Below, piece after piece: positions 11,951 to 59,193 of a DNA stretch of 64,000 nucleotides; the first letter of the stretch is position 1, and each line of letters begins with the position of its first letter. The translations under genes and the position numbers were made by a program. The notes under the pieces were generated by a model. The model ran no database searches. It had not been told where the DNA came from and saw only the letters and a list, made by a program, of their open reading frames with translations. The stretch comes from Spironucleus salmonicida (lineage: Eukaryota): assembly GCF_000497125.1 (NCBI RefSeq), contig NC_090600.1, positions 310,001 to 374,000 of the forward strand, written 5' to 3'.

Positions 11951-11969
11951 GGGGCGTGAAGTGCAGAAC

Positions 11970-36892: not shown

Positions 36893-37342
36893 ATGTCATT
36901 CACTACTATGGATAGATGTTAATCTTAATGTCTCACTACCTGCTATAAGCATTTTAATTTATATCGATGTAGATATAATCTAACGTATTCTTAGCTTGTT
37001 TTTTACTTATTCTATGCAGCTATTATGTTGGTTGTCATTGGAGGAATGATTTATGCACACCATGTTTATAAGTTACGTCAAGGTTTCCGGAAGGAGAAGA
37101 ATGGGCCCTGCTGCTTCCGCTACGTGCGGGACGAGCACCGCCAGGAGATGCGCCAGGTGGTGTACGTCGAGGACGGCTACGGCAACCTCACGGAGGTCGG
37201 CCACGACTACGTCCTCGTGCCGCAGCGGACCCGCCAGCCGGAGCTGGTACCGCCGCCCCCGGCGCCCATCATGGCTGACATCCAGCCCCCGCAGGAGTAC
37301 CAGCAGCCCAAGGTGGTCCCGAACACCGCGCCGCAGTTCTGA
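36893..37342 (+). CDS. cassette gene 1, copy A: 149-aa four-Cys single-pass membrane protein
   Basis: MSFTTMDRCQSQCLTTCYKHFNLYRCRYNLTY-TM-RQGFRKEKNGPCCFRYV...PPPP tail. Confidence 0.8.
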
Positions 37343-37422
37343 GTGAGCGGGGTCGGACGGAGTGATTTCAGTTTCCACATTACACCTGCATCCCGGCCCG
37401 AAATATGCAGGTTTCCCCCGCA

Positions 37423-37431
37423 CCACAAATG
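37423..37431 (+). promoter_or_regulatory. C-rich start-proximal motif CCACAAATG
   Basis: Same motif at 37820-37828 (+) and CCACAAAATG at 38325-38334 (-). Confidence 0.5.
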
Positions 37432-37785
37432 CAAGTAGTCGCCGTCACCTGCTCCGCCTGCGGCTTCCTGTCCAACGAGAAGCCCGGCGTCGCCACCTGC
37501 GCCTTCTGCGGTTCCGCCGACGTGGCCGAGGTCCCCACCGAGGCGCCCCTCTCCCACGACAGGGAGTTCCTGGAGCTGTGCAGCGCGAAGTTCGGCAAGA
37601 GCTACGCCAGCCTCAAGCAGATCTCGGACGAGTTCGCCTTCGACGAGACCTTCATCCACCTCACCATCAAGAACGCCGAGCTGTGGCAGTACTGCCTCGA
37701 GCAGCCCACCTTCGAGGCGCTCCTGGACCTCTGCGGTGCCAACCAGCACAAGAGAGGCCCCGCGATCTGCCCCGGGCCCCAGTGA
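37429..37785 (+). CDS. cassette gene 2, copy A: small zinc-ribbon-like protein
   Basis: CSAC..CAFC pair; strong GC3 bias; CCACAAATG start; CAG-TGA stop; 118 aa. Confidence 0.7.
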   Translation: MQVVAVTCSACGFLSNEKPGVATCAFCGSADVAEVPTEAPLSHDREFLELCSAKFGKSYASLKQISDEFAFDETFIHLTIKNAELWQYCLEQPTFEALLDLCGANQHKRGPAICPGPQ

Positions 37786-37825
37786 TCTGTCTCCCCACTG
37801 ACGCGCGGTGCCCGCCACTCCACAA

Positions 37826-38032
37826 ATGGGAGCCTGCGCCCAGGACGACTTCGTCCCCGCTGCCATCATCCAGCACGAGTACGCGGCCTACGACTTCGCC
37901 CAGAACTCCGCCGCCTCCCTGGTGAGCGAGCGTCAGGCCCAGAGCCGCGCAGGACTGTCCCTGAGCATGGCACGGGCCCTGGTGGAGGAGGAGCAGCCAG
38001 ACGTCCACGCGGAGTGGGACCTAATCGAGTGA
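37826..38032 (+). CDS. cassette gene 3, copy A: 68-aa protein with MGAC N-terminus (possible acylation signal)
   Basis: CCACAAATG start, GC3 bias, GAG-TGA stop. Confidence 0.6.
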   Translation: MGACAQDDFVPAAIIQHEYAAYDFAQNSAASLVSERQAQSRAGLSLSMARALVEEEQPDVHAEWDLIE

Positions 38033-38051
38033 TATCGCCAAATAGAGAGTC

Positions 38052-38327
38052 TCACTGGTCGAACCGGCCCAGCCTCTTCAGGTAGAAGTACTGGTTCTTG
38101 ATCTACACGCGCGTCATCTCCGGGAAGTCGCTGCGCTGGATCTGCTTCAGGTCGTAGCCGTGTTTCCGCACGGAGTGCACGAGGCGCTGCTTCATCTGGA
38201 AGGTCCAGAGGTTGTAGTCCTGCCGCAAGAAGGCGTGGTGGCTAGGGACCTCCTGGTTGTGGTCTGCCATGTCGTAGACATCCTGGGTGCCGAGTATAAG
38301 GATGAGCTGGTTTATGACGCTATCCAT
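38052..38327 (-). CDS. cassette gene 4, copy A: small single-repeat Myb/SANT protein
   Basis: WTFQMKQRLVHSVRKHGYDLKQIQRSDFPEMTRVQIKNQYFYL; 91 aa. Confidence 0.7.
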
Positions 38328-39424
38328 TTTGTGGAAATGGTATCCCGATACTGCTATATAACGGGATATCGGCACTAATACCAGATTGGAACGCACTGAT
38401 AGTTCCAGCTTAATTTTTACTTTGTCCTGAATATGTGTATAATATCAGTACTGTAAGTTAGAGGTAACTTTCGAAACCATCGTATCATATGTATACCGCT
38501 AAGTATTAGTCTGTAGTTGATTCCAGATTTTGTGTTCTATATGTTTACAGCTGGCCCCGCGTGTATGCGGAACTATCTCAAAATATACAAATTCTGTCCA
38601 CTCCAATCTAGGCTCCAGAGCATAGCACGCATCCCCGCATCAAAATAACCTGTTTTTGTGGTTTACGTGTGTGGTTTAATTTAAGTTTTATGAGACAGTG
38701 TGCTGTGTTTAAGGAGCTGCAGAGGGGGGGGGCATAGTCTGACACACTAGAAGCAGCTCAGTTCAGGTTTTTGTACTTTGGAAATTTGTTTTATTGGTGG
38801 AGTAACTGATAGATGACAGCGTAAACCACATCTTATAATATATAGGAAGCCAAGTTAAAACTCAGAAAACGATTACCAATTAATATACAGCTAAATTTAG
38901 AATTTCTGTTTTAACTTTAAATACAATTGACTGCAATTATTTATATACATATAACTTTTATCTATTTTTGGGAAACTGTCTTAATCTATGTTTAAGTCCG
39001 AGATTTTATTATGTTTAAAAATTGTTTGAGTACTCTTAACCATTTTATTATTGTATAATATTCATTTAAATCAGTTTATGAGTGTTCTGAATTATATGAA
39101 AGTGCCAAGGTAAGCAGCCTTATTTCTTGTAAGAAACTTTGGACACTTAAGTCTCGACAATGGATAATCATCCTAGGAGAACCAAAATATTTTTTAATTC
39201 TAGATTAGGATCATGCGGCCAATTCCAGTAATAGCTGCAATGCAGGTGCCTTCGTATTCGTGGAGATATCTGTTGACTCGCTTGCAATGCAGCCACAAGC
39301 ACATGAGTTCACTTCATACCTGTGTATCCAATCCGTACTTGCGTGTTAAAGCATTTTAAATATTTTGTTGGGGTGGTTCGAATTTTGGTGGAAAATTAAA
39401 AATATATTCATATACCTTTACTTA

Positions 39425-40306
39425 TCACTTCTTGCCCTTCTTAATGAAGTAGTAGGCAAGGCCGCCTCCCACGGCTCCGATCACTGCCACTACGCCAACT
39501 ATGATACCAACGATGACCCCAGTGCCGGTGCTCACCTTGTCTACAACCTCAGGCTCAGCTTCAGCTTCGGCAGGCCAGCATTTAAATCCGCGCATTTCGA
39601 ACCCTGAGATGCAAATCGTGCACGACCCATCCTTATCCATCTAGTGGTTGGGCATGCAAGAGCCGCATTTCTAAGTATCTTCCGCACATGTGGCACAATT
39701 TTGAGAGTTTCCACATTTACAATCTGAGGTGAGGCCTGGGGCGCAAGCGGTAGCAGTTCCGTCCTTGCAGTACTAACCATTTGATAGAAGACTACACCTA
39801 GCTGTACAGGTTCCGTTAATTGTTGTAACGCTATCCTCGTCGCCACTGCAGAAATAGCAAAAATCTTGTGTCTCGCATGCGTCACATTGCAATTTGCAAG
39901 GCGTACATATCTTTGCTGCTACATCACAATATTGCGCCCCTTGCTCTTGTATGCATTCCTTATTGCTGTTGCATGTTTTCATACATTTGTTGGTGCTAGT
40001 GTTCAAAACGTAGCCTTCCACACATTTCTGGCAGGCGTCCTAGCTTTTGCAGTCTATGCAACCCTTCATGCATTTCTTGCAGGTATTGTCCTTCAGATAA
40101 GTGCCAGCGAAGCACGTAGTACAAAGAGGTCCATTACATTATGTACAATTATCTGTTTATTAGTTATCTGTGCAGGAACAGCCTTGACCGAAAACTATTT
40201 ACCCGGGGCATGCCAAACAATTAGCGGAAGTATCATCAGTGGCAGGGCAGTAGAAGCCAGCCTTGCATTTGTTCTCTCTCTTTTGGCAGGTTCCTGATTC
40301 CGCCAT
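39425..40306 (-). CDS. cysteine-rich membrane protein 1 (CRMP1), copy 1
   Basis: CxxC repeats, TM VIVGIIVGVVAVIGAVGGGLAYYFI, terminal KKGKK; 293 aa. Confidence 0.9.
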
Positions 40307-41770
40307 TATGGAAAGCGTAAGATTTAGTATTATAGCTCGGGATTCATTATACTACTTTTTTTAAGATTTCTCTACTATAATTAGATGTATATACTGTATT
40401 TTTGGTATAATTGAAAAATGCTACAATATTCAAATTTTAGTAACTTATATTAATAGTATATTATCCAATTGCTACTTTCAGTTATAGTAATTATACTCAG
40501 ATGAATACTTATTTTAAAAGTAAAAGGAGTTCAGATTATTTAGTTTTTGCACATTGTTAGTATTTAGTTCTTTTCATAGATGTTGGTTTTAGTTATCAAA
40601 AATATTATTGATTATGAATTGTATATAAGTATTTATTAATTTAACTAACTTAGATGTAATATTTACTTATATATTTAATATTGTATAAAGTTATTAGCTA
40701 TTAATTTACAATCTAAAGTAATCAAACAAAATAAAGTAGACAGTTTTTTTATTAAACAAAATGATTATATATTATGATTACAATAGCAAATTCTCATTTT
40801 CAAATTTATAAATTTTCATGGATTTAGTTGAAGGCTTTTATAATAAAATTGTGCGCATTTTTTTCTCATTAAATCTAAAACTTTTTCATTGAATAATAGA
40901 AATATATTTCACTTGGGTTAATGTTTAAAGACCATATCTAAATAATCCAATAAATTAACATTATATTTTTATATATTTTATAATTGTATAATAGCTTGAT
41001 TTCATCATTTATCTTTTTTAACCAGTACAGATAAATATAAACAATGTAATATTCCATTAATAGAATCCATAAGATTGTATATTATTTATTAAAGAGAGGA
41101 GCTAATTTTACTAATAAAGAATATTAATATTTTCAACATATCATCAATTATTTTATAAACTGGTTATGCCAGATAAAACTTATGACATGTTTCAAAGCTA
41201 AATTTTATAAATTATCACAATAAAATATTCTAATTAATCATATTTTTTCATTACAAACAAAGGAACTCCATAACATATTTAATCTATTCCTCACTCTGCA
41301 TCATTTTTAAAATATTTTACAAATCATTAAGTAATATGATTCATAGAACAAATAATCGTAATGGCATATTCAGATCAATTCACCTCTACTGAATGTTATA
41401 TTATATCTTCAAAACTTATCATAATAGTAAAAGATTTATAATATTTCAAGTTTTATACCAGTATAAAATAATATTGAAACATATAAAGTGAAATATTTAT
41501 AATACTTCTAAAAATAATTTAAAAAATACTATAATATCTTTAAATTTCATAATATTTTCAGTTTATTCAAGAGTAAAACAATTTAAAATGAATTCTCTTC
41601 ATCGTTCCTTAGTATAATATAATCATAATCCTAATATGATAACTCCTTTGAATAACATATTTTGCATGACTTATCTCGTCATATCTTACTATCATATACA
41701 TATAAAAGTATATTAATTAAAAATTAATTTAATATAATATATATTTATAGAAATATTTATTCCGCAAAAA

Positions 41771-44629
41771 ATGTCATTTCCGGAAGTTTAATCAACACCT
41801 GCAACAATAACATAAATTTGTTATCCAGATACTACATTCATTCAAGGAAATATAAATTAGTCAGGAGATGGTCCATGTACAGTTTAGTTTAATTCAGGAA
41901 CGCTTTTCCATGGAGCTTTACGTAATTTTCAGCTCAGTTCAAATCTTAGTATTATGGAGTCGGGGCCATCAATTATTTTATCATAATTTAACCCACTTCC
42001 ACAAGGGTAGTCTCTAATAGCATTTTCAGATGGCAGCATTTTCTAAGGTAATGTAGAAAATGGTTATGCTGTAGGGTTTGGCTCAGCATATCAAGCAACG
42101 TCAGAAATTTACTATTCTGGAAATTTCTAATCTGGTATGGCTGATGGTTTTGGTTGCGCCGTTCAGGGGGATTTTAAGGACCAAAATAATATTGAATCGG
42201 TATATTTAGGATGGTTCTAGGATGGTGAACCTCATGGACGAGGAATTTCACTTGGAATTGACGGCGAGGGTCTTACAATGTTCAACCGCTTCGAAGGCTA
42301 CTTTATTCAAGGAATCAGAAATGGCTCAGGCACTATTGTACTTGGATCAGGTGAGTGGCTTATCGGTTAATTTATTAACGATGAAAAAGATGGTGTTTTC
42401 CTTTACATTTCAGAATAGGGTGAAATTGAGCTTAGATATTATTTCAAAGACATTATGAAACTTTCGTACAAATCCGAAAACTACTACATCGACAAGCCAT
42501 AAGAGCTCAAATTTGTTGTTATGCAAAATGAAGATTCAAAAATTGAGCTTTACAATGAATATGTGGCATATTTCAAGTTTTTAGAAAGTACAAATTTGCC
42601 TGGAAAATCCTCGTAGAGCCAAAGAATTCATATAATTCCTATTATAGATACTATATGGAGATTCTGTCGACGCATCACAATACCATTAAGAGTGGGTCTT
42701 ATCACCGATTCTCGTGTTTGTACTCCTATAATTTCTGAGCAGATTGCGGAGATTGCACGAAATTTAACTAAATTAGACGTTTGTTAGGTTTTAAAATAAA
42801 CACAATAAAGCCAAGAAATGATCAACTTTTTCAAAGTCGTTGAAAGTATAAAATCGTGTATTATTGGGAACTATGAAATTTTGAAGTTTTTGTTTCAGTT
42901 TTTTAGAGCTCGAGATTTAATAACATTTGGTGAGTAAGCTAAATCAGTCTATATAAATCAGTTTCTTGAGGAAGTGGAAAAATACATTGAAGATGAACGT
43001 ATTAAAATGGTGAAAGAGGATATAATTTTACCATAATAAAACTAAATATAAACTGAGAATTCACTCATTGATAATATTCATTCTGGAGAGAATTCAATGG
43101 AATGGAAAGATACTACAAAAGTAGAAGAAACTGATGCAAACTAGACAATTACACTGGATTTAAACCACGAAACTATAGAAAATATTGTCGATTTGGTAGA
43201 AGATGCACCTTAAGCTGGTAAAATGGATAAAATTAAATCTTTATTAAAGGTATCTTAAATTTTACCTTTATCAAATTCTGGTAAAGATAATGAACTAATT
43301 AACACTGTTATCTCACTACTTGATCAAAATTTAGTGGTTTCTCATTAAAATATTAAATAAATGGTTTTTGATATTGCTGCTTTTACGGAATAATTAGACC
43401 TTATTCAGCCATAAGACGAGTTTATTGATTTATTAATCGACTAGTTTTCAAAGCAATCTGATAGTTATTAAACTACTATTTAATTCGATATTTAAACTCT
43501 TTTTTCATAGTCAATTACTGATTCTAATTTCACCCAATTTATAGCATTTTTGCTTAATCTTTATTAGGTTTTTGATCATGATAATCCAATTGTATTTATG
43601 ACTGAGGTTATTTACCCTTACGTAAAGCATAATCTGTCAAAACTTATTAAAGCACTGGAAACTGATAATTTTGCATTAAGTTTACTGTTTGATCCTACAG
43701 ATTAATTTTATATTGATATAATGAAGTAGAAATCTCAATCAAAGAAACGTAGAACTGATCTCGATGATGATAGTTAGAGTACTATTTCAAAATAATTCTC
43801 TAGTAACAGCAAGGCTAGCAAGTTCATGAGCAGCACTGGCAGCAAGGCAGCAGTTCCAAAGATTCTTTTGCGAGATGCAAGTAATATGTTGAATGAACAA
43901 GAATAGAGTATTTTTAGATGTCAAAAATTAAGTGGAAAACTGGTTAAATTAATGTAGATTAATTAAGAATATTAGTCAAAATTTGTGTTCCCATACTTAA
44001 TAAATGAAACCCTTGAAACCATAATAAATAATAAATTTGGACTTAGTATCTCATAATATTTATAATTAGATTAACTAACGTTAACTGAATTTTTATTCAA
44101 CTATTTTGAGTAGTTTAATGAAGTTTTCGGCTTCCCTAAAATTTCAGAGGAAATAGATTTTTATTTCAGAGTTTTAGGTCCATTTTTCGTTAAATTTGCA
44201 AGAGCTGATGGCTCATGGTTTTTAGAGGAAAATACTTATATAAGTGATAAAGGTCAATATCTTATTGAAAAGATACTGTCTTTCCACGTCAATCAGCAGG
44301 TGTTAACAGCTATTTTAGCATGTTGTTTATTAAAAACAGATAAAATCAATAAGTAGAAGCCGGTTGTAGATCCTAATGATACAACAGGTGATTTGGATAA
44401 TAACTCAGTTGTATCAGAAAATTCAAATGATAGTAATATGGATAGTATCAATTCTTTTAATTCATTTGCAGAAAGCGGGCATTCCACAAGAAGTCAAGCC
44501 GAATAGAAAAAGGTAGAAGGTGAGAAGCAAAAATTATTTTAGGTAGATTCAAAGAAATTCGATGAAGGAAATTGCTATAACGTAATTGGTTTGTTCTTAT
44601 AAGGTATTTTGCAGCTTTTTAATAAGTGA
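41771..44629 (+). CDS. MORN-repeat protein (possibly radial-spoke RSPH10-like)
   Basis: YSGNFQSGMADGFG, YLGWFQDGEPHGRG, FEGYFIQGIRNGSG repeats; 952 aa. Confidence 0.75.
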
Positions 44630-44652
44630 ACAATTTGTTAAATTATATGTAA

Positions 44653-46470
44653 TCACTCGTCGTTTTCTAACTCTTTAATTTTTGTTAATGACTATAAAAT
44701 TTGATCTTCCAGTTAATCTTATAAATTTAATTATTACTAATCCTACTAGCAGCTTATAATATTTGTAATCTATGGTAATATAATATGAGGTGAAGTTACT
44801 ATATTATGATTAGATATAACAGGTCCTGATGAACGCTTTCGGGATTTAATTTTTTCAATTAGCTTCATTAATTTTTATATAATTAACTCCTGCTCTACTA
44901 TATCTAGTTCACTAGAATATTTTTTTTATAATTTTCTACAAATCTACTATATGGTTTTAATCTTATTAGAAACAGAAAACGCTTTTAAAACACTTTGTAA
45001 ATCAGAACTAGAGAATGTAATACTCTACTGGGAATTTTGATTAGAAGAAAAAACTTTTTATACAATAACTGAATCCAGTGAGACAGGTAGAAATCTTTAT
45101 TAAAAATATTCCATATCTGTTTAACTGAAAATAAGTACATCTTATTTTAACTTGTTTAACTTAACTGTTTCATGGGCTTTATTATATAACTTTAATTGAA
45201 ATTGTAGTTAAGTAATCTATTACTGTATGTTATTAATTTAATCTTCGCTATAATAACTCCTATCAATATAAGGAATAATATCAATTTCATATGGAACAAC
45301 AGATGAATTTTCAATAAAAATAGTAGCCAAATCATGACATTATATTTTTGGACTAGGTAACTAAGATGCAACTCTTTGATCTGAAATCGAAATTGTTTCA
45401 TCCTCAATTCTAATATTGCTGACTTTTTATGAAAATAATAGATCAACATCATTTTACGAAATTATAAATTAGCTTTATCCTGGATTAAGTAAATTAATAG
45501 AATATATCTATCCATTTACAAAAACTTCAACCTTACCTATGTGAAGTTCTTATTAATTATAGTTAGTAAAAACTTCTTCTGCTATGAATTTATTTGATAT
45601 ATCCCAAATATTATAACAGCAAAAAAACGCGACTTCTTCATGTTTATAGCTAACTTTATCGAGAATTAAATATTTAATTTCTTCTGCTTATTCATATTTA
45701 AATGAAGAAAACGTTATGGTCAAGAATGTATTTCCATAACTTACCTGTGTATGAATGGCTTTTTCGTATTTCTAATAAGGCAAAATAGAATATATAGCAT
45801 GTTAAATAGGCCAAGTATGGCATAACTAATGTATATGGTCATAATTCTGCTACCTAATATAACTCACAGCTTCAATTTAGAGATTTTCTAAACAAAAAGG
45901 TTATGTAATAATATAACCCTATTTCCCTATATTAGCTTCAAATAATACAATTTTAAAACCATGATGAATGCCTAATATTCTAAATATTTTTTAAGATGGC
46001 AATTCTGCTTCAACAAACAGGGAAACAGAATTATTCTTGAATTCCTGAACCTTTTGTACGTTTCCTGTAAGCACTATCCCATCAGACTCAGATTCATACT
46101 AATACTCTTAAAATGGGATTATATTTGGAATATTAACATGAATAAACTGATTTTAAACATCCATACTCTCTTCCTAAAGCAGCTCTATAAAAATCTCAAC
46201 GGGACACCGAAAAAGATCTGTTATATGCACACCTTGGCACAATTAGCTAGAAACCTTTTATAGCTCCTTGACAACGATGAACTAGGCCTACTGATATGGC
46301 GAGTCGAGCGACAGCTTGAAATTGAAATACTCTAACTAGCATTTGCGTAGAATCGGAATATACTGATAAGCATACGACGACGAAGAATAAATAACCACAA
46401 CCAAATGCGTAGCCTGCGTGTACTCCTGCAGGTAGATCTGCTTCAAATCGATTTCATAATTATACCGCAT
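44653..46470 (-). CDS. hypothetical protein
   Basis: ATG 46470 and GAG-TGA in same frame; 605 aa. Confidence 0.6.
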
Positions 46471-46530
46471 TTTAAACCAAAAATACATATTATTATACAT
46501 TATATATATATTATTTTTTCCGCTTCAAAA

Positions 46531-47205
46531 ATGTTCAAAGGTTGTTTCAAGCCGAAAACGAACACACAACAAGTAGACCCCAATCTAGACCCCACCACCC
46601 TAGAATTTGACGAAAATTTCGCCAAAAACACCGCAAAAATTGACAATTTCGACGCTAAAATTTCTGAGTTCAAAACGGCCGAAAGCGCCGATTTCGAGAG
46701 CCTGAAAATGCAGTTCGAGTCGGCGCAGATCGAACTGCAGACGGCCCGCGAGACCATCAGAAGCCAGCAGCTGGACTTGGCGCAGGCCGCTGAAAATGCT
46801 GCAGAGGCACCGGTTCAGATCGATTAATTGGTGTATAATAATGACATTTTGGCAGAACAGAATTAGTAGGAAATGGAGCGGCTGCGGAGCGATAATGCAC
46901 GGCTTTAGGAGGCCGTTGCAGAGCTTCAGGCGGTTCATGAGGTTCAGGTCAACTAAAATGAGCAGGAATCGCACAATGAGCAGCTTCTGTAAGAAGGCAC
47001 GCAGAACGACTTGGAGTACACAAAAGCAAACTTGCAGCTCTCTGAGCATGCGTATGTAGCGTCTAACATCGATTCTGACATTTAGAAGACACTTTAATAC
47101 AACAATAAATCTGCGGTTAAAATTTTGCAGCTGGAGCAGCATCTGCAAGATTTAGAACATAATATGACTTGTCAGGCGGCGTTATTAGATTCTGATGACG
47201 AGTGA
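46531..47205 (+). CDS. coiled-coil protein
   Basis: MFKGCFKPK..., E/Q/L-rich heptads; GAG-TGA stop; 224 aa. Confidence 0.7.
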
Positions 47206-47337
47206 GTAGTAGGTTTTGTTCAATAGTTAAGTTAATTGTTGGTATTTAGTGGAGCTTATAATTGCAACACAAATTGTGTTATTTATACTTATATAGCATA
47301 TTCAACAAATAAATGGATAAAATTTTGCACAAATCCT

Positions 47338-48651: not shown

Positions 48652-48750
48652 TTTGTGAGAGCGGACGTGAATTGTAAATCTATATAGTAAAATATTAAAA
48701 ATTTAGATTGTAAATAAGATTCAACATTATAATGAATAATTATGTTAGCA

Positions 48751-49116
48751 TCACTCTGCTGCAATTGCGTCAATTTCGACTAAAGCATCCATGGGAAGCT
48801 TGGCAACTTCTACGCAGATTCTTGCCGGCTTATGATCGCCAAAAGCTTCAGCATAAATTGCATTTACTGCAGCAAAATCAGATATATTCTTGAGCATGAC
48901 CTGGGTCTTGGCAACCTTAGACATAGAGCTTCCAGCAACCTCTAATATACCTTTTAAGTTATTTAAGGCATTTTTGGTCTGCTCTTCAACAGTGGCGCCG
49001 AGCGCACCATCCTTTACTCCTAACTGTCCGGATACAAAGATCAAACCATTAGCCTTGCAGGCAGGAGAATAAGGACCGAGGCATTTAGCGGGAGTTTGGA
49101 TGCACTGAACTGGCAT
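48751..49116 (-). CDS. ridA: RidA/YjgF/UK114 enamine-imine deaminase
   Basis: GPYS..IFVSGQL..EQT..N..F..VN..Y..F...PAR..V..LP..LVEIDAIA; 121 aa. Confidence 0.92.
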   Translation of the reverse strand: MPVQCIQTPAKCLGPYSPACKANGLIFVSGQLGVKDGALGATVEEQTKNALNNLKGILEVAGSSMSKVAKTQVMLKNISDFAAVNAIYAEAFGDHKPARICVEVAKLPMDALVEIDAIAAE

Positions 49117-49654
49117 TTTTTGATGGAATGGCAATTTAGATTTATGGAATATTTCTTTATATATTTAATTGTTAACTAATTTTATTTGTGAATTATAAAA
49201 TCCGATGATTAATTTATTATTCAGAAAATTATATTAAATTCATCTTGCATGTACTCTTAATTAAGCACCTGGATTTTGAAAATAATATCAAACAAATATA
49301 TATAAGATTAATATTTATTTTATTCTAAATTCTAATATAATAATTTTTTATAGATATAATTATAGAGGAACTTTACTTTAAGTATATGCTTTTATTCAAT
49401 GTAATAAGTCATCTGAACATTTCCGCACTAACATTATTTTCCGTATTTTCAGCAATAAAATTTCTATTTAAAAATAATAAATATTTCATATAAATATAAT
49501 TAAGATTTAGTGTTTATTATTTTGTGGTTTGTATAATGTTTTCTTAGTTTTTATATTACTAATATATTCGTATAAACAAATTTATCTAACATAAATCGCT
49601 TTACATATATGGGGATACAATAAATTTTAAAATTTAATATTCTTGCACTTCCCT

Positions 49655-49948
49655 ATGGACTACTTGACGATTATTCATACATGCGACTCAAATGCAATGG
49701 ATTGTTTGGATTTTTCGTATCAATAACCAGTGTCTTAAAGCAAAAGCCAAACAAGCATTAAAGCACGCAAAAAAAGAGACAAGTGGTCAGTATATGAAGA
49801 AGTTTGCTTGTTGACAATTTTGTAGAAAGATGAAACTAAAACATGGCGCAAAGTAGCTGAAGAATTAAGCAAGTAAACAAAATGTCCAATGAAAACGGCA
49901 TCATAAATAAGTTAACATTGGCGTAGAGTTCTTAAACCAATATGGTGA
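49655..49948 (+). CDS. small Myb-domain protein
   Basis: KWSVYEEVCLL...TWRKVAEEL...KTASQISQHWRRVLKP, three regularly spaced Trp; 97 aa. Confidence 0.75.
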
Positions 49949-50367
49949 ACATATTCTTTATTATATCATAGAATGCTTTAAATACTTAAGTAAAGACTTT
50001 GGTATTATATCGTTAAATTTAAATTTTATTTCTTCTGACAAATAAAAAATCATCCGGAATTTTATGGAAATCAATTAAAAGAAACTACTAATATAACTTA
50101 ATATTAACTTATTCATAATTATTATGATAATTATAATTTCTTATAGATACGGTAGAGAGATATATAAACTATATTTTTTATCGTGTATATTCTTACTAAT
50201 ACTCTTAAATAATCTTTTAAATTGGACATGTGTTATGACACATAATATATAAGTAATATAACTATTATTAAAGTGAAAATTTGTTTTTGTATATATTAAT
50301 ATTATTTATTATATAAAAAATTTATATATAGAAATATAAATTAATATATAACATTAGTTTAATAAAA

Positions 50368-50817
50368 ATGACATTTTAATCACTAGCAGTGTGTTAGGGA
50401 TAGTGTCTGACTAGTTGCTATTCGTATCTCATCTATTACCGCTGTACATACAACTTAACCTACACGCAGTTGGTATTCTACCTGCTGTACGTGGGGATCC
50501 TCCTGATTTCCGTCGGCACCCTCGTGCGGGTGTACGGCACGTACAAGCGCAGGCAGGGCTTCCGGAAGGAGAAGAATGGGCCCTGCTGCTTCCGCTACGT
50601 GCGGGACGAGCACCGCTAGGAGATGCGCCAGGTGGTGTACGTCGAGGACGGCTACGGCAACCTCACGGAGGTCGGCCACGACTACGTCCTCGTGCCGCAG
50701 CGGACCCGCCAGCCGGAGCTGGTACCGCCGCCCCCGGCGCCCATCATGGCTGACATCCAGCCCCCGCAGGAGTACCAGCAGCCCAAGGTGGTCCCGAACA
50801 CCGCGCCGCAGTTCTGA
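50368..50817 (+). CDS. cassette gene 1, copy B
   Basis: MTFQSLAVCQGQCLTSCYSYLIYYRCTYNLTY-TM-shared tail; 149 aa. Confidence 0.8.
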
Positions 50818-50903
50818 GTGAGCGGGGTCGGACGGAGTGATTTCAGTTTCCACATTACACCTGCATCCCGGCCCGAAATATGCAGGTTTCCCCCGCACCA
50901 CAA

Positions 50904-51260
50904 ATGCAAGTAGTCGCCGTCACCTGCTCCGCCTGCGGCTTCCTGTCCAACGAGAAGCCCGGCGTCGCCACCTGCGCCTTCTGCGGTTCCGCCGACGTGG
51001 CCGAGGTCCCCACCGAGGCGCCCCTCTCCCACGACAGGGAGTTCCTGGAGCTGTGCAGCGCGAAGTTCGGCAAGAGCTACGCCAGCCTCAAGCAGATCTC
51101 GGACGAGTTCGCCTTCGACGAGACCTTCATCCACCTCACCATCAAGAACGCCGAGCTGTGGCAGTACTGCCTCGAGCAGCCCACCTTCGAGGCGCTCCTG
51201 GACCTCTGCGGTGCCAACCAGCACAAGAGAGGCCCCGCGATCTGCCCCGGGCCCCAGTGA
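50904..51260 (+). CDS. cassette gene 2, copy B
   Basis: Same protein as 37429-37785. Confidence 0.7.
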   Translation: MQVVAVTCSACGFLSNEKPGVATCAFCGSADVAEVPTEAPLSHDREFLELCSAKFGKSYASLKQISDEFAFDETFIHLTIKNAELWQYCLEQPTFEALLDLCGANQHKRGPAICPGPQ

Positions 51261-51300
51261 TCTGTCTCCCCACTGACGCGCGGTGCCCGCCACTCCACAA

Positions 51301-51507
51301 ATGGGAGCCTGCGCCCAGGACGACTTCGTCCCCGCTGCCATCATCCAGCACGAGTACGCGGCCTACGACTTCGCCCAGAACTCCGCCGCCTCCCTGGTGA
51401 GCGAGCGTCAGGCCCAGAGCCGCGCAGGACTGTCCCTGAGCATGGCACGGGCCCTGGTGGAGGAGGAGCAGCCGGACGTCCACGCGGAGTGGGACCTAAT
51501 CGAGTGA
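51301..51507 (+). CDS. cassette gene 3, copy B
   Basis: Same protein as 37826-38032. Confidence 0.6.
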   Translation: MGACAQDDFVPAAIIQHEYAAYDFAQNSAASLVSERQAQSRAGLSLSMARALVEEEQPDVHAEWDLIE

Positions 51508-51526
51508 TATCGCCAAATAGAGAGTC

Positions 51527-51620
51527 TCACTGGTCGAACCGGCCCAGCCTCTTCAGGTAGAAGTACTGAGTTTTAAATTACAAAAGTCATACTCAAAAAG
51601 AAAGTACTCACTATCATATA
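51527..51620 (-). pseudogene. decayed remnant of cassette Myb gene 4
   Basis: Last 13 codons and stop identical to gene 4; beyond 51568 AT-rich FLSMTF-QFKT aligns to FPEMTRVQIKN with a frameshift. Confidence 0.5.
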
Positions 51621-52125
51621 ATAATATTTGCGATTTTTAAGTAGAATCAATGTTATAAAATCTTATGAATTGAATACATGTAACTATTATATTATAATGG
51701 TATAACTAACCTTAACCATTGTTAATGTATCTAATACTTTTTATAAGAATAAATCTCTATTTTTATATTCTCTTTCTAAACTAAAATAATTTTCTGAACT
51801 AGGATTATAAGAAAATAACTTTCAGATGTAAATATCGAATAATAATTAGAATCGATTTTCTACCACTCGTAGAGTGCCTAAACTTCAGCATGTAAAACAT
51901 CAAAGACTTTAAATAGACCTTAACTTGCAGTAGGACCTTAATATTCTCTAATTAATTGGATAACCTTTTGACACATTATTATTCCCTTTAAAATCATAGG
52001 TAAAGACTCATTATTTAGATGCCGTAATTCTCAGAAGAATAAAGAAAATTAGAGAACAGCATGCTCGCACATCCTTCAAATTTATTACATAAGGAAGCAC
52101 ATCCCATTCTAACTGAACATACTGC

Positions 52126-52566
52126 ATGTACCCTAATGTCTAGAATTATCTGGGTCTTATCTTTAAAAACAATGAATTTTCTGATTAGGGTTCATTGACG
52201 GTTACCTCTGTTGATGAGAACAGACTCGCAACGTTTAGTGGAATATTTCCGAGCGCTCTTAAAATTACTGACTTGAGTACTAATTAGCTAAAAATCCTTA
52301 ACACTAATTAGATAGAAGTTATACAGGACCTCGATTTACAAACTAATTTATTTCTGGAAATACATTTTAAAAACTGCAAGAACCTTAGGAAGCTAAATAT
52401 TTTGCAAGCAATATATATTACCTCGATCTACGGTTCAATAAAATACTAGAGAATATACATCTTTATAAAACGAACAGTATCAACTTCAAACGAAAGGTTA
52501 AATAACAGAATATTGATATCTTAGCGTGAAATATCCAGTAGGAATTTGTAGAATTTGCTAGCTTGA
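52126..52566 (+). pseudogene. leucine-rich-repeat protein fragment
   Basis: LKITDLSTNQL, IQDLDLQTNLF, LRKLNI; further LRR-like YYLDLRFNK in another frame; upstream TGA interruptions. Confidence 0.45.
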
Positions 52567-52661
52567 GGCTATAGGATTATACAGATTGCACTGTAGAATA
52601 TTGATCACCAAAATATGTTAAAGAAGTCAGTTACTGAAAAATAAGTCGCAAATGAATGAAC

Positions 52662-53438
52662 TCACTCCACCATTATTTAGGTAGACTTGGATTCCATATT
52701 ATCGTAGTAAGCTAGCAAGAGGCGGTCAAATAGGTCACAGTGTGAGTATTCGAAAGTTTCATGTCCAAAGTATATTTTATTCGCATGCAGCAATCCCCTG
52801 CTAGTGCTAGTAATGAATACACAGTCCGCCGCTTAAATATCCTATATAGTGAATTTCATCCGTTTTAGATCAATACCTAGCTCTTAACATATGCTTAGTA
52901 CGGAATTTCTAACATTTCCACCAAGGACATCTTGGTCCCCAGCAGTTTAAATAGTGTTCCCCAAAATAATAAAGCAGTTACTGCTCAGACCTTCAGTTAC
53001 AAACCCATCCTAGTGCATTAAAACTTCGTCAATATCAGAGGTGATAAACTGTTCCAGACTTTGTCTTTTAACGCACCAGTTAACAGATTTTATCTACGGG
53101 TCTGCTCTCGCGGCCTCCATTAGGATAAAGTTTGAGGATAACTTTGCAGCTGGCAAGGATTCTGCAAAAAAGTCGAGATGGTTACCAACTGACATACAGT
53201 ATATTCTGATGTCGGCCGGAAAGTTCTACAGAAATACATTGGCCGCGGCCATAATCTGCTTGCACGCCATTGGGCGAGTAAGCTCCCCAGACACCAACCT
53301 GCACAGGTGCACCTCTAGCTCTGGAATCATGGTTCTTGAGAGCGTGCGCAGCGTGGTAAATGTAATGTCCTTGTACAAAGTAAGCACGTCATGCCCCTTC
53401 AACTGAGACACGGTGAGTTATCCATCTTTCAGGTACAT
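52662..53438 (-). CDS. aminotransferase class IV, copy 2
   Basis: Duplicate of 32205-32981. Confidence 0.85.
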
Positions 53439-53499
53439 TAATTAAATATACTTATATATTAAATTATCCACATCAGATTATTTATCATCTCGGTTATCT

Positions 53500-54108
53500 T
53501 CAAAGACGAGGTTACGCGCCAGAACGCAGCCGGAACGCGTCCACGGCCTCGCGCACCCCTTCATAGTTCAAGTCCTTTCCGTGCCTGAAAAACTACCGAA
53601 ACAGGCACTCGAAGCTCTTGAACATGCTCCGGAGCACTTCCACCTCAGCTTTTCGCTCCAACTCCTCGCAAATCCGCGCCATTTGCAGCGATTCAAGTAC
53701 GAAACTGGAAAGGAGCGGTACCGTTTTTGGAGTGGAACTGGGCATTCTAACCGAGTTGACGGCGATGAGCTCCTTTTGAATTTGCTGTTTTTAGTTTTGC
53801 AGTCGCTAAATCTCGATCTTCAGCACCTTGTTTTCGGTGGCCAGCGAGGTCAAGAAGGCGCTAATTTCCTGTATTTCTTGCGATTGAAAATAAGGGGCTG
53901 AGTGGGGAGAATCGAGCGGTTGCTGCTAGTTGAGGTTGAAAAACCGAATTGTAGCGATGGCCTCGGAAATGCTGAACAGCTCTGGTTCTGGCATGGACGT
54001 AACCTGATAAATCTTTTTAATCGATTCGGTAATGAGCGATACCTAATTTGACCTGGCAGCTAAAATTCTGGCCTGATCGGAGAGCGGCAGGAGCGGTAGC
54101 ATGTCCAT
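53500..54108 (-). CDS. hypothetical coiled-coil protein, copy 2
   Basis: Duplicate of 33043-33651. Confidence 0.65.
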
Positions 54109-54162
54109 TTGTATTCTTTTTATATTTATATATAAATGTGATACTATAGCCACTTCAATAAA

Positions 54163-55983
54163 ATGGATCTTTTGAAATAAGCGAATGATTTGGTCTAGGT
54201 AGTGAAGTCTGGCGCATGCGCCAAACCGATCTATGCGGATGAAGTTAATTTTATGTGCGACACCTGCGCTGGCTCCACCTCGGTTTTCTGCCCTTCGTGC
54301 TTCTACAACGGAGATCACCTAAATCACGATTACAGACTATCAATGAACTTGGTGGGACTCTGTGATTGTGGCGATGAGTCTTCGTATATTTAAGAATCTT
54401 GTTGTTCAAACCATCCTCTAGTATAAGTTAGCATTTTTGATGGTGTAACTTTCGATTCGTTTTCAGAAGTATTCGACTTGCTGGTTTAGTTCTAAAGTTT
54501 CTTGCAAGAGCCTTAAGAAGATCAAACTCGATAGATTTACGATATGTGTGAGCAGTCCCCTATACTTCTTAGGATTATAGTTTTCACTCTGTTTTTCCAA
54601 AAGTAGCAGAAATAATTTTTGTTCAATAATATTAATAACATTGATATTCTCCTAGACGTAATAAATTAGAATAACTTTGCGAACCATCTTCTAGTTAAGC
54701 TTGAAAGTTTTGTTTTTGTAGATTTGCTAACGTAGGACTTCTATTTCCGCGTGTTCTCAGTGTTACTGTTCTCCCATAATTTAGAACAATTGATAATATG
54801 GCCGAACAGAGCAATTTAGATGATGTCAGTTTAAATCCTAACGGAACCAAAAACATAAATTTATGTTGCACAATTCAAAATTTATTCTAGGTTACTCAGA
54901 TTTATGAGAGAAAAAATATAGCTTAAAAGCTAGCTGGACGGGAAACTTCTACAGGTGACAGATCTGTTCTACCAGTTTCAGTAAATATCACAGCCACACC
55001 AAGTCAAGTACCTATTTATCTACGATCATGAGCTTTTTGAAGAAATCTTGAGGTTTCATGAGGTAGTAAACTTCTATGGGAAGATTAACCCAGATGACTG
55101 TGGGGAGAACTTCAATACGTTTTTATAGGAGGTTAATATTTATGTATATTACATTAAATTTATCATAGGACCGTTTTACGCGATTTGCAACTACTCAGAC
55201 TTAGAGATCGGTAGTACAGATGTAATTTTAAGCAGGTAACATATAAAAGGGGACGTCCGAAGCTAGTGTAGCATTAATACTAATTTCTACTAATCTGTAA
55301 ATTTTTAACTAGCGGTCGAGATGGTAAGTGTTCAAATTAAGTTTAGCTAAATGCAAACAAACTACTTCTTGCTTTTCCCATAATAGTTTATATAAATTTT
55401 TATTACTAACTAGATTTATAGACTAAACCTAGACAAAGCAGAATATTTTAGCATGTTGGCATCTAAGTTAAATATACCGTTAACCGATTTAATAGACCAA
55501 CTTCTCCAGGATCCATATATTTTCTTAATTTTCAAATAGCAAATTCTATCATAGACATGCTTTAAGAAACATATCTATGAGCTTGGCATAGCAGTTAACT
55601 TTTGCGCTAATGACTCATTTTTTAGCAACCACTGGTTCAAAATAGTTAACTTCGTCCAATTTGCTATTCCTTTAGCCGGTAAAAACTACTTCAAGGATAA
55701 CAACTTGATTAAGCTAGAAATCCTGAATTAGATTCTATTTAATATCAATATTCTTGACGAGGAGCTATTTTTGCGAATTTTCTTATCTCTACAGTTCGTC
55801 TAAATATAGGATGCAAAATTATCAGGAATTTTGGATAAAACCGGGTTCAGACGCAATCTTGTCTTAGATGCTGCCAGAGAAATATTCAATACTGAACCTA
55901 ACCCAAAAAAGCTTAAATCAGCAGTAGTCAAACTAAAAACTTCTTCGTTCGTTGAGCCTTCGATGATATAGACTCTATGTTGA
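54163..55983 (+). pseudogene. 3'-truncated UBR-box E3 ligase copy lacking the RING
   Basis: Matches 33706 gene to ...VEPSM, then IQTLC-TGA; 606 aa. Confidence 0.75.
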
Positions 55984-56046
55984 ATACATCAAAGTATAGG
56001 GGAATTATAGTATATTTATTTTTTGGGTGTAAGGATGGCATAGCCT

Positions 56047-56916
56047 TGGGCGCAGGCTCCCATTTGTGGAGTGGCGGGCACCGCGCGTCAGTGGGGAGAC
56101 AGATCACTGGGGCCCGGGGCAGATCGCGGGGCCTCTCTTGTGCTGGTTGGCACCGCAGAGGTCCAGGAGCGCCTCGAAGGTGGGCTGCTCGAGGCAGTAC
56201 TGCCACAGCTCGGCGTTCTTGATGGTGAGGTGGATGAAGGTCTCGTCGAAGGCGAACTCGTCCGAGATCTGCTTGAGGCTGGCGTAGCTCTTGCCGAACT
56301 TCGCGCTGCACAGCTCCAGGAACTCCCTGTCGTGGGAGAGGGGCGCCTCGGTGGGGACCTCGGCCACGTCGGCGGAACCGCAGAAGGCGCAGGTGGCGAC
56401 GCCGGGCTTCTCGTTGGACAGGAAGCCGCAGGCGGAGCAGGTGACGGCGACTACTTGCATTTGTGGTGCGGGGGAAACCTGCATATTTCGGGCCGGGATG
56501 CAGGTGTAATGTGGAAACTGAAATCACTCCGTCCGACCCCGCTCACTCAGAACTGCGGCGCGGTGTTCGGGACCACCTTGGGCTGCTGGTACTCCTGCGG
56601 GGGCTGGATGTCAGCCATGATGGGCGCCGGGGGCGGCGGTACCAGCTCCGGCTGGCGGGTCCGCTGCGGCACGAGGACGTAGTCGTGGCCGACCTCCGTG
56701 AGGTTGCCGTAGCCGTCCTCGACGTACACCACCTGGCGCATCTCCTAGCGGTGCTCGTCCCGCACGTAGCGGAAGCAGCAGGGCCCATTCTTCTCCTTCC
56801 GGAAGCCCTGCCTGCGCTTGTACGTGCCGTACACCCGCACGAGGGTGCCGACGGAAATCAGGAGGATCCCCACGTACAGCAGGTAGAATACCAGCTGCGT
56901 GTAGGTTAAGTTGTAT
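56047..56916. repeat. GC-rich cassette tract C (inverted)
   Basis: Reverse complement of 50448-51317. Confidence 0.92.
56104..56460 (-). CDS. cassette gene 2, copy C
   Basis: Same protein as 37429-37785. Confidence 0.7.
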   Translation of the reverse strand: MQVVAVTCSACGFLSNEKPGVATCAFCGSADVAEVPTEAPLSHDREFLELCSAKFGKSYASLKQISDEFAFDETFIHLTIKNAELWQYCLEQPTFEALLDLCGANQHKRGPAICPGPQ

Positions 56917-56996
56917 CTACATCCATAAAAAGGAGTTTATTAAAAGCAATATGTAAGGCATTGCAATTGGCACCTACTTATTGAAGCAAATGACAT
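56547..56996 (-). CDS. cassette gene 1, copy C
   Basis: MSFASISRCQLQCLTYCFQQTPFYGCRYNLTY-TM-shared tail; 149 aa. Confidence 0.8.
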
Positions 56997-58016
56997 TTTT
57001 TATTCTATTTTTATCAATATAGATAAAGGATTTTATTCAATATATACATATAATCATTATTCAATTATATTAGTTCATACCATTATCTAATATCAAATAA
57101 ACAAGTATACGACTATAGTTTCTATAATATACTAAATAAAAATAAATAAATATTAAATTTATATAGTTTTTGCCGATTCTTTATATTTGAAAATTAAAGA
57201 AAAAGTTAAATAATTGTATAAATAAGTATTCCTTTTTAAATTTTAAAAAATCAATTTGTATAAAAAATTCACTAGACCATTCTTTAAATCTCATAACCGA
57301 TTAACAACACATATAATTAATATAAATATATTATTTATGTAACCTTCTGTGGAAACTCTAATTTACTGCTACGATATTAAATTAACAATAAATAAAATAT
57401 TTAATATAAATGAAATATGACTAATATTCATTATTCAACATTTTTGATAATTTTGTTATTTTATAAACTTGATAGGTATAATATTAAAATATGTAATATT
57501 AATAAATAAAATATAAATATGTAAAGCTACTACTTTCTCAAGCATAATAATATGTGATAAAATAAGATAAACTATCAATTAAAGTTGATAATTTTGTAAA
57601 GATAGTCTCTATGTATGGTTCCCCAGAAAATAAAATAAGTACTGCTCATTAATATTATATAAAATTATTATATTGTATCTAATATTTTATATTGATAAAG
57701 CTATTTATTAAGGAAAGAATGACACTTTAATAACTTTATAATTTTTATTAACATATATAATTAGCATCTAGTGTTATATATAAATAATTAAATATTTTTA
57801 ATATAGTTCTAAGTAAGTTCTTAAAAATATGAGTAAAATAATAATCATATGGTATTTAGAAAATGTAGATGTTAAACGTTAGACTTCGGTTATTTTTCTT
57901 GTCTCGTTAATAGAAAATAATTTTTTCATATATATTTTATATAAACAAAAACAAAGAGAGTATATACGATTTGTGTTAACAATTACAATAGTATCTGCAC
58001 TAATTTATGATTTATA

Positions 58017-58484
58017 ATGAATTATTTAGCAAAAATAATATGTTCATCTATAGAAAGATGTCAATCTTTCTATATTACTAGTTGTTATTAAAACTTTCCA
58101 TATTATCGATGGTAGCATAATATTCTAGTTACTTAGCATTCACGATATCTTGTTTATGTTGCAATTTTATTAATATATATTGGTAGCTTAATTCAGACAT
58201 ATAGTATCTATAGACTCAGGCAGGGCTTCCGGAAGGAGAAGAATGGGCCCTGCTGCTTCCGCTACGTGCGGGACGAGCACCGCCAGGAGATGCGCCAGGT
58301 GGTGTACGTCGAGGACGGCTACGGCAACCTCACGGAGGTCGGCCACGACTACGTCCTCGTGCCGCAGCGGACCCGCCAGCCGGAGCTGGTACCGCCGCCC
58401 CCGGCGCCCATCATGGCTGACATCCAGCCCCCGCAGGAGTACCAGCAGCCCAAGGTGGTCCCGAACACCGCGCCGCAGTTCTGA
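58017..58484 (+). CDS. cassette gene 1, copy D (degenerate N-terminus)
   Basis: Homologous start position 58035 is ATA, in-frame ATG at 58017; ERCQSFYITSCYQNFPYYRWQHN has lost Cys2 and Cys4; shared tail intact. Confidence 0.55.
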
Positions 58485-58570
58485 GTGAGCGGGGTCGGAC
58501 GGAGTGATTTCAGTTTCCACATTACACCTGCATCCCGGCCCGAAATATGCAGGTTTCCCCCGCACCACAA

Positions 58571-58927: not shown

Positions 58928-58967
58928 TCTGTCTCCCCACTGACGCGCGGTGCCCGCCACTCCACAA

Positions 58968-59174
58968 ATGGGAGCCTGCGCCCAGGACGACTTCGTCCCC
59001 GCTGCCATCATCCAGCACGAGTACGCGGCCTACGACTTCGCCCAGAACTCCGCCGCCTCCCTGGTGAGCGAGCGTCAGGCCCAGAGCCGCGCAGGACTGT
59101 CCCTGAGCATGGCACGGGCCCTGGTGGAGGAGGAGCAGCCGGACGTCCACGCGGAGTGGGACCTAATCGAGTGA
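58968..59174 (+). CDS. cassette gene 3, copy D
   Basis: Same protein as 37826-38032. Confidence 0.6.
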   Translation: MGACAQDDFVPAAIIQHEYAAYDFAQNSAASLVSERQAQSRAGLSLSMARALVEEEQPDVHAEWDLIE

Positions 59175-59193
59175 TATCGCCAAATAGAGAGTC

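Follow-up and report, generated by a model that had tools for sequence, protein, structure and literature searches.

How do four genes come to carry different heads on one and the same tail? We consider this question for four small genes, copies 1 to 4, in a window of 64,000 nucleotides (nt) from Spironucleus salmonicida (contig NC_090600.1, positions 310,001 to 374,000). All coordinates count from the first nucleotide of this window. Each gene encodes a short N-terminal head, a transmembrane (TM) segment and a tail. The original prediction took the four for a diversifying surface-receptor system, with variable heads joined to a homogenised tail. A different history is likely. The heads would belong to old paralogues, into which a tract rich in guanine and cytosine (GC) at third codon positions (GC3) has recently been copied. 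The products would be species-restricted, adaptor-type membrane proteins of ~148 residues.

We read the four genes with NCBI translation table 6, in which TAA and TAG encode glutamine. Each 450-nt body gave 149 residues followed by TGA, and the stretches are open only with TAA and TAG as sense codons. Alignment of the four bodies at the DNA level required no gaps from start codon to stop. Copies 1-3 share an AAAATG start, four cysteines spaced C-x3-C-x3-C-x8-C, the sequence x-YNLT, a hydrophobic segment and the tail. The head of copy 4 is degenerate; ATA replaces ATG at the homologous start, and the second cysteine, the fourth cysteine and NLT have been lost. Residues 62-149, an 88-residue tail, are identical in all four copies. 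Hence, the original prediction was accurate in describing colinear bodies free of insertions and deletions, the individual heads, a near-identical tail and a decayed fourth head. Tail codon 84 (37142, 50617, 56747 and 58284 in copies 1 to 4, respectively) reads CAG in the first and fourth copies and TAG in the other two. This contrast between paralogues of one genome directly illustrates the use of TAG for glutamine. The code and the VSP/CRMP-type genes nearby (see below) point to a hexamitid diplomonad. A ciliate is ruled out by these neighbours and by the names under which the proteins are recorded, and Hexamita inflata is unlikely given the same names, which are those of S. salmonicida.

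The search with a model of the four-cysteine head, proposed at the outset, was run within the window. A hidden Markov model of head and TM segment, compared with the six-frame translation, identified exactly five loci (E-values 1e-27 to 1e-33; next match 0.035). Four of these are the known genes and the fifth is a further member at 11970-12416, which also carries an in-frame TAG. The older database version of this fifth member (P0008) differs near the C-terminus, and looks like a frameshift between assemblies. A sixth member, P0007, is encoded outside the window. We conclude that the genes are real and related, and that they encode small single-pass membrane proteins with a four-cysteine N-terminal head.

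The shared tail was examined by comparing the window with itself using BLAST. Identity is not limited to the tail. It begins in-frame where TM segment and tail meet (codon ~26 for copies 2 and 3) and continues for 0.76-3.5 kilobases (kb) downstream, across three further genes, at 99.5-100%. Matches to copy 1 join 37079-38093 to 50554-51568 (1015 nt, 99.6%), 37079-37842 to 56810-56047 (inverted; 764 nt, 99.6%) and 37079-40615 to 58221-61759 (3540 columns, 99.49%). Copies 2 and 3 match each other over 50443-51317 and 56921-56047 (875 nt, 99.8%). Only 3 of 764 columns vary among the four copies (37079-37842) and 1 of 251 among three of them (37843-38093). At the 3′ side, the junctions are abrupt and lead to unrelated AT-rich DNA. 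They fall at three places, 37842, 38093 and ~40605, and two of them cut genes; tract copy 2, for instance, breaks off inside the 3′ end of a Myb-like gene. The tracts of copies 1 and 4 additionally hold an AT-rich spacer and a CRMP-like gene. Non-coding DNA and as many as four genes further downstream are part of the identical tract too, and its ends are abrupt and non-homologous; homogenisation as a protein-level feature of the tail is therefore not supported. Judged by this extent, the identity is a product of recent segmental duplication or long-tract gene conversion, and not of selection on the tail.

Codon usage changes sharply where the tract begins. The tails of all four copies have a GC3 of 0.93-0.97, and the heads 0.12-0.48. 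In the TM segment, GC3 is 0.32 in copy 1, 0.18 in copy 4 and 0.93 in copies 2 and 3. Hence, copy 1 goes from 0.14-0.32 over head and TM segment to 0.93. A map of third positions places the switch at codon ~62 in copy 1, ~60 in copy 4 and ~27-28 in copy 3; in copy 2 the rise is gradual from codon ~17. The identity of copies 2 and 3 begins at ~50443/56921, and so includes their TM segments. The TM segments of copies 1 and 4, which are unconverted, encode similar residues with AT-ending codons. Over codons 17-26, directly upstream of the start of identity, GC3 is 0.60 in copy 2 against 0.10 in copy 3. Because its GC3-rich codons reach upstream of the identity, copy 2 would be a native GC-rich gene and the likeliest donor for copy 3.

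High GC3 is a property of the other tract frames too. Frame-specific values reach 0.96-1.0 in the tail, in a 126-amino-acid (aa) open reading frame (ORF) and in the Myb-like ORF, and tract frames range over 0.87-1.0 overall. Hence, the tract frames are coding. All frames considered (four tail genes, the fifth member and the three remaining tract ORFs) finish with AGTGA or 1 nt ahead of it. AAAATG-type starts and AGTGA stop/polyadenylation signals are described for S. salmonicida in the available parts of a genome report (PMC3916229). The fifth member has a GC3 of 0.87 along its whole length, though it is single-copy in the window. Conversely, a 3.7-kb duplication nearby is not GC-rich, its genes having a GC3 of 0.49 and 0.35. 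We conclude that GC-richness belongs to the copied sequence, and was not made by duplication here.

If the tract is recent, are the heads recent as well? Nei-Gojobori estimates with table 6 gave proportions of synonymous differences (pS) of 0.71-0.91 for the three head pairs among copies 1-3, and proportions of nonsynonymous differences (pN) of 0.24-0.29. The copy 4 head has a pN of 0.38-0.41. For most head pairs the ratio of nonsynonymous to synonymous rates (dN/dS) was not computable, as pS exceeded the Jukes-Cantor limit; where computable, it was 0.17 (copies 2 and 3) and 0.50 (copies 1 and 4). Differences in the three pairs occupy 54 of 99 third positions but 62 of 198 first and second positions (chi-square p ~2e-4, for pairs that are not independent). 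Copies 1-3 are identical at 18-19 of 33 head residues. They are about as far from each other as from the unlinked P0007, which matches copy 2 at 44% over head and TM segment. With pN well below pS and synonymous sites saturated, the heads are best explained as old paralogues under purifying selection. A dN/dS comparison had been proposed as a check, and its outcome is that the heads of copies 1-3 do not evolve neutrally. The description of the heads as diversifying was not borne out by the same values. The data indicate old and constrained heads with no sign of ongoing diversification. A few positively selected sites may still be present, since 33 codons in three sequences are compatible with them.

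The history that we prefer runs as follows. The four genes would be old paralogues, with heads that separated long ago and were since maintained by purifying selection. The GC3-rich tract would have been copied recently between loci by gene conversion, break-induced duplication or segmental duplication. One end of each copied tract would be anchored in homologous coding sequence, in-frame, while the other would lie 0.76, 1.0 and 3.5 kb downstream, at points that are arbitrary and lack homology. In this way, the tract would have overwritten the 3′ half of each gene, together with neighbouring genes.

The range of the family bears on where the tract came from. A profile search of 1.84 billion cluster representatives returned P0002 and P0007 only. 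Word-seeded searches of 5.8 billion proteins returned 3 clusters with one query and 5 with a profile of the six members. All of these clusters are the window's own proteins or source-named S. salmonicida proteins. Family size beyond the window rests on protein databases; on this evidence, the family is restricted to S. salmonicida, with six members so far and no relatives found outside the species. The sources name them only "hypothetical protein", "Uncharacterized protein" or "Transmembrane protein", consistent with the suggestion that the family was undescribed. A literature search with the protein identifiers found no paper, supplements being outside its reach. P0007 matches the copies separately and colinearly in two parts, over head and TM segment (44%, E 1e-13) and over the tail (34%, E 2e-7, with the same PNTAPQF end). 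The fifth member matches the family over its full length. Hence, the union of head and tail is ancestral, and without any copy-over the tails of the four genes would be expected to be about one third identical.

An ancestral union speaks directly to a different origin of the tract. It could have come from a virus, a transposon or a lateral transfer, as a foreign or mobile element inserted four times into AT-rich host ORFs, and the fusions would then be accidental. The composition of the tract invites this idea, at 57-69% GC and GC3 0.87-0.97 against 0.31-0.64 in eight other genes of the window. However, GC-rich segments with high-GC3 native genes are known in S. salmonicida, where they are unexplained and were judged not to be lateral transfers, according to the available passages of an earlier survey (PMC1805757). 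The tract also has sharp edges, several copies and truncated copies among them, but its three 3′ ends differ. No terminal inverted or direct repeats were found at the tract besides the copies themselves, and a Pfam scan detected no transposase, reverse transcriptase or integrase. Tract ORFs lack relatives elsewhere; for the 126-aa ORF, none beyond its own copies was found among 5.8 billion proteins. Even so, the tract uses in-frame TAG for glutamine and the AGTGA gene ends of the host. The decisive point is that P0007 (E 2e-7) and the fifth member have tails homologous to the one encoded by the tract and, in addition, homologous heads. This largely refutes a foreign or mobile origin, which we regard as very improbable.

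The 126-aa ORF was also compared with a 208-aa ORF beside the fifth member. There is no similarity (E 0.27) and hence no conserved gene pair. The GC-rich stretch beside the fifth member contains long ORFs on both strands, at 11324-11950 (+) and 11105-11977 (-). The 208-aa ORF is the plus-strand one. Its codon-position pattern is the more convincing of the two (GC3 0.72 against 0.54), and it carries a CxxC..C..C motif; Pfam returned no match for it.

Sequencing reads provide evidence on whether heads and tails are joined. Eight sequencing runs of one organism hold the stretch. Four of them were guessed to be RNA and none is recorded as such. We mapped three RNA-like runs and one DNA run (X1) on 49900-58700, which contains copies 2-4, three of the four copies. 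The RNA-like runs gave no cover in AT-rich spacer bins and adapter ends at gene borders. The DNA run covered 28 of 30 bins, AT-rich spacers included. In all three RNA-like runs, a contig extends from 50383, 50386 or 50395 (codons 6-10 of copy 2) through TM segment, tail and 126-aa ORF and on past 51568. All three carry the T form at 50617. One run, X5, has a contig at 56867-57018 that comprises head 3 together with the 22 nt preceding its ATG; this run also contains the tail in both its forms, with T and with C at codon 84. There was no RNA-like contig over head 4 (58035-58220) in the three runs, or over head 3 in X6 and X7, which is an absence of cover and not evidence. A DNA contig at 56785-58246 runs from tail 3 through head 3, spacer and head 4, and stops 26-30 nt into tract copy 4. 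The contigs show head 2 joined to its tail in RNA-like sequence, and copies 3 and 4 arranged in short-read DNA as they are in the window; strand, ends and levels are not given by them. Separately, contigs of the DNA run leave the window sequence at 50267-50290 and 57339-57773, AT-rich places with loose ends on both sides. These loose ends in spacers may reflect allelic or structural variation.

Such contigs also weigh on the notion of an artefact, either chance ORFs with TGA as sole stop or assembly chimeras of unique heads on a collapsed repeat. Table 6 yields 71 ORFs of at least 200 aa in the 64 kb, many of them spurious. However, chance ORFs would not explain head homology at E 1e-27 to 1e-33, pN below pS and a conserved cysteine scaffold. 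As for chimeras, the repeat is near-identical, and short-read DNA contigs enter it by only 26-30 nt at the junctions of copies 3 and 4, where bridging needs 31. In contrast, the RNA-like contigs of all three runs extend from head 2 for hundreds of nt into the tail, and independent members of the family exist elsewhere. We find an artefact scarcely credible.

Head expression also bears on another explanation, a modular receptor system. Here, selection would keep different heads on a common tail, conversion would be selectively stopped at the TM/tail junction, and expression would perhaps be clonally exclusive. The 5′ tract ends would suit this, as those of copies 1 and 4 lie within ~10 nt of each other and no tract covers the first 16 codons; yet the identity crosses intergenic DNA and unrelated genes to reach random junctions. 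Similarly, the cysteine scaffold is conserved and positions between the cysteines vary, but synonymous saturation and low pN date these differences as old, and the copy 4 head is decaying. The other two members have divergent tails of their own. The genes do sit among duplicated CRMP/VSP-like genes, and the available passages of a genome paper tie such regions to gene conversion (PMC9509377). Even so, only six members emerged from the searches of 1.84 and 5.8 billion proteins. Transcription of the unique heads had been named as a check, with clonal exclusivity as one outcome. Contigs over heads 2 and 3 do occur, within one RNA-like run in which the tail is present with TAG as well as with CAG; at bulk level only, this speaks against exclusivity. 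We consider a receptor system unlikely, and no diversity-generating system has been shown at this locus.

The family is next set against the surface-protein families of this group. VSP and CRMP proteins, in the available parts of the report that describes them, reach hundreds of residues and combine many CXXC/CXC repeats with a C-terminal TM segment and a 5-residue basic tail, [KR][KR]X[KR][KR] or CRGKA (PMC3916229). Like Giardia VSP and S. salmonicida CRMP-1 and CRMP-2, the family consists of cysteine-bearing membrane proteins, and it shares the same duplicated, conversion-prone neighbourhood. Unlike them, it has four head cysteines without CXXC, a TM segment near the N-terminus and a tail of ~90 residues. 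The VSP profile (PF03302) matched none of the six members at E up to 10. As a positive control, the CRMP-like gene at 24361-25821 matched Pfam VSP at E 4e-16. Hence, the family is distinct from the CxxC-repeat proteins, as had been proposed.

What kind of protein do the genes encode? All six members have one hydrophobic 19-mer (Kyte-Doolittle hydropathy 1.79-2.48), flanked by 0-2 lysines and arginines on the N side and 3-6 on the C side. One segment, a short N-terminal part and C-side positive charge are the features of type III single-pass topology, and six of six members have them. This predicts insertion with the N-terminus out and the C-terminus in, without a signal peptide. The TM segment lies at residues ~33-53 of ~148, and the tail has ~90 residues. 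For residues 1-60, AlphaFold2 gave predicted local distance difference test (pLDDT) values of 88-95, with a helix at 6-12, a hairpin at 17-26 and a helix at 32-62 (89-95). For residues 103-149, pLDDT was below 50, as for a disordered tail. The NLT sequon precedes the TM helix by ~5 residues. Oligosaccharyltransferase requires a minimum distance from the membrane of ~12-14 residues. Hence, NLT is probably too near the TM segment to be glycosylated.

Beyond the membrane, a basic juxtamembrane stretch is followed by a Pro/Gln-rich tail. R62, G64, F75 and Y77 are invariant just past the TM segment, and five of six members have Cys-Cys there. The YVLV of the four copies aligns with YEAI of P0007, both of which we take to be YxxPhi-type motifs. 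Candidate tail features would be a palmitoylatable Cys-Cys, the conserved YxxPhi, a poly-Pro run and the C-terminal PNTAPQF. In our model, the ~30-residue cysteine head would be folded and disulfide-bonded and would contact a partner in a lumen or on the cell exterior, and the tail would serve for docking or sorting in the cytosol by recruiting cytosolic factors.

Searches for relatives by structure and profile were largely empty. Foldseek against the PDB gave 39 matches, all at E of at least 3, and a PDB sequence profile search gave 1 match at E 1.5. Pfam returned chance-level matches only, each to one of the six members: XTBD (0.0072), DUF4545 (0.021), DUF7315 (0.16) and Flu_M2 (0.16). In a language-model atlas, the leads for two divergent members were CYYR1, WBP-1, VOPP1, shisa-4-like proteins and influenza M2/NB, at 0.76-0.87; this is chance level, as 0.9 is where a hit counts as more than a lead. 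Shisa, WBP1, VOPP1 and CYYR1 are said to have been grouped by Pei and Grishin in 2012 as Shisa-like single-pass adaptors. The likeness to them consists of a short cysteine-rich extracytoplasmic N-terminus, one TM helix and a disordered Pro-rich cytosolic tail. In contrast to them, the family has its four cysteines at another spacing, a head that starts at residue 1 without a signal peptide region, and no PPxY. Shisa-like profiles (CYYR1 PF10873, WBP-1 PF11669 and VOPP1) matched none of the six members at E up to 10, and the atlas leads to these proteins lie at 0.76-0.83. We infer a small transmembrane adaptor- or sorting-type protein that resembles Shisa, WBP1, CYYR1 and VOPP1 in architecture only and is a member of none of these families.

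The influenza leads raise the question of channel function. Instead of adaptors, the proteins could be small oligomeric channels or disulfide-linked bundles, type III and viroporin-like. The gross architecture of influenza A M2 and influenza B NB is the same: N-terminus out without a signal peptide, an ectodomain of ~25-30 residues bearing cysteine, one TM segment and a cytosolic tail. The family differs in being cellular and in having no pore motif in the TM segment. In M2 this motif is His-x3-Trp; the 19-residue hydrophobic cores of the six members contain no His or Trp. M2 and NB are among the atlas leads at 0.76-0.82, and one of six members matches Flu_M2 (PF00599) at E 0.16 with 12.5 bits against a cut-off of 25, but all these scores are at chance level. 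The compact helix-plus-hairpin head, as predicted, would better suit intramolecular disulfides. A complex prediction for four copies of residues 1-70 (score 0.01, mark 0.32) has no bearing on oligomers either way. We judge channel function to be quite improbable, and adaptor-type proteins remain the preferred interpretation.

The features discussed lie in an AT-rich window with ~18-30% GC between genes, the genes being GC-richer (Table 1). Neighbouring genes are eukaryotic and encode two protein kinases, a DEAD helicase, a UBR-box protein and a class IV aminotransferase. CRMP-like genes at 24361-25821 and 39425-40306, with their duplicates, surround the family genes. An inverted 1.4-kb duplicate (24359-25770 and 62279-63690, 98%) carries a 486-aa VSP/CRMP-like gene with a C-terminal TM segment and basic tail. 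The 3.7-kb duplication contains the class IV aminotransferase gene and the 5′ part of the UBR-box gene, the second UBR copy being truncated. The break in this second copy, at 55966, is separated by 80 nt from the inverted end of tract copy 3, and RNA-like contigs run on past it along the full-length first UBR copy.

Table 1. Family members, copied tracts, tract reading frames and flanking duplication (window coordinates; ORF, open reading frame; aa, amino acids).
Feature	Position	Strand	Remarks
Copy 1, P0001, 149 aa	36893-37342	+	AT-rich head and TM segment
Copy 2, P0002	50368-50817	+	Codon 84 TAG
Copy 3, P0003	56547-56996	-	AT-rich head to codon ~27, then identical to copy 2; codon 84 TAG
Copy 4, homologous body	58035-58484	+	Database model P0005, 155 aa, starts from ATG at 58017, 6 codons upstream
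Fifth member, 148 aa	11970-12416	-	C-x3-C-x3-C-x8-C..NLT head, TM segment, divergent tail; single copy in window
Sixth member, P0007 = SS50377_24751, Spironucleus salmonicida, 147 aa	Outside window, unlinked		Source names "hypothetical protein", "Transmembrane protein"
Tract copy 1	37079-40615	+	GC3-rich to ~38330, then AT-rich spacer and CRMP-like gene 39425-40306 (-)
Tract copy 2	50443-51568	+	Identity with copy 3 starts at 50443, with copies 1 and 4 at ~50550
Tract copy 3	56047-56921	-	Inverted; stops 17 nt into the 68-aa ORF
Tract copy 4	58217-61759	+	99.49% identical to tract copy 1 over 3540 columns
126-aa ORF	37405-37785	+	Two CxxC pairs; GC3 0.92; AGTGA end; identical at 50880-51260 (+), 56104-56484 (-) and 58547-58927 (+)
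68-aa ORF	37826-38032	+	GC3 0.87; AGTGA end; also in tract copies 2 and 4; first 17 nt only in copy 3
88-aa Myb/SANT-like ORF	38061-38327	-	Weak Pfam match, E 0.0012; GC3 0.91; in-frame TAG; whole only in tract copies 1 and 4
3.7-kb direct duplication	31834-35509 and 52291-55966		99.8% identity; just upstream of copies 1 and 3

According to the available passages of the genome paper, 19.2% of the S. salmonicida genome is recently duplicated, duplicated regions have 44.7% GC compared with 30.7% elsewhere, and gene conversion is suggested (PMC9509377). Self-matches of at least 2 kb at 95% identity or more were found for copies 1 and 4 (3540 columns, 99.49%) and for the 3.7-kb pair (99.8%). At 1015 and 764-875 nt, respectively, the tracts of copies 2 and 3 fall below the published 2-kb duplication threshold. 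Partial concerted evolution, or segmental duplication that breaks off inside paralogous genes, is a general phenomenon, and for this genome it resembles what we describe in its near-identical, GC-richer, multi-gene tracts (PMC9509377). The present case differs in that the tract edge lies in-frame inside four old paralogues, with GC3 rising from ~0.2 to ~0.95 within a few codons; no such mosaic is among the available passages.

Several points weigh against old paralogues with a recently copied tract, or against adaptor-type products. The near-equal 5′ tract ends of copies 1 and 4 are the first of these; they could be explained by homology-limited conversion or by selection against homogenised heads, the latter of which would favour the original prediction. 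Tract copies 1 and 4 extend further in the 3′ direction than tract copy 2, so that a single donor does not account for everything. GC-richness is not a consequence of duplication here. The RNA contigs are unstranded, and the runs that they come from are only guessed to be RNA. The predicted fold was built on an alignment of only 6 sequences. Adaptor function was read from the architecture, and Pfam, PDB-sequence and Foldseek searches gave no match in support of it. Finally, PPxY/LPxY tail motifs of Shisa-like adaptors bind WW-domain ligases. The six tails contain PPPPAP and PPQEY but no PPxY or LPxY, so that a Shisa-like WW-ligase mechanism is not indicated.

A more specific model would combine copying with selection. 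Briefly, a GC3-rich donor would repeatedly overwrite AT-rich paralogues from the 3′ side, and this would be halted, or counter-selected, before the ectodomain. The outcome would be a small receptor set with a shared signalling tail. We think this doubtful. If true, it would provide a mechanistic handle on GC heterogeneity in S. salmonicida, for which there was still no explanation in 2007. It would also define, separate from VSP/CRMP, a new family of modular surface proteins in a fish pathogen.

The analysis defines an orphan, lineage-specific family of tiny, putatively N-out membrane proteins in a salmon pathogen, with six members and RNA-contig support for two heads. A variable head on a constant tail resembles programmed diversity; here, the pattern would result from old divergence and very recent copy-over. 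The locus is a natural example of codon usage that flips from a GC3 of ~0.2 to ~0.95 inside single ORFs, at the edge of a conversion or duplication. In this genome, GC-richness can travel with copied tracts instead of arising in place. This bears on the unexplained GC mosaic (PMC1805757) and on the gene conversion proposed near surface-protein arrays (PMC9509377), as the available passages of these papers describe them.

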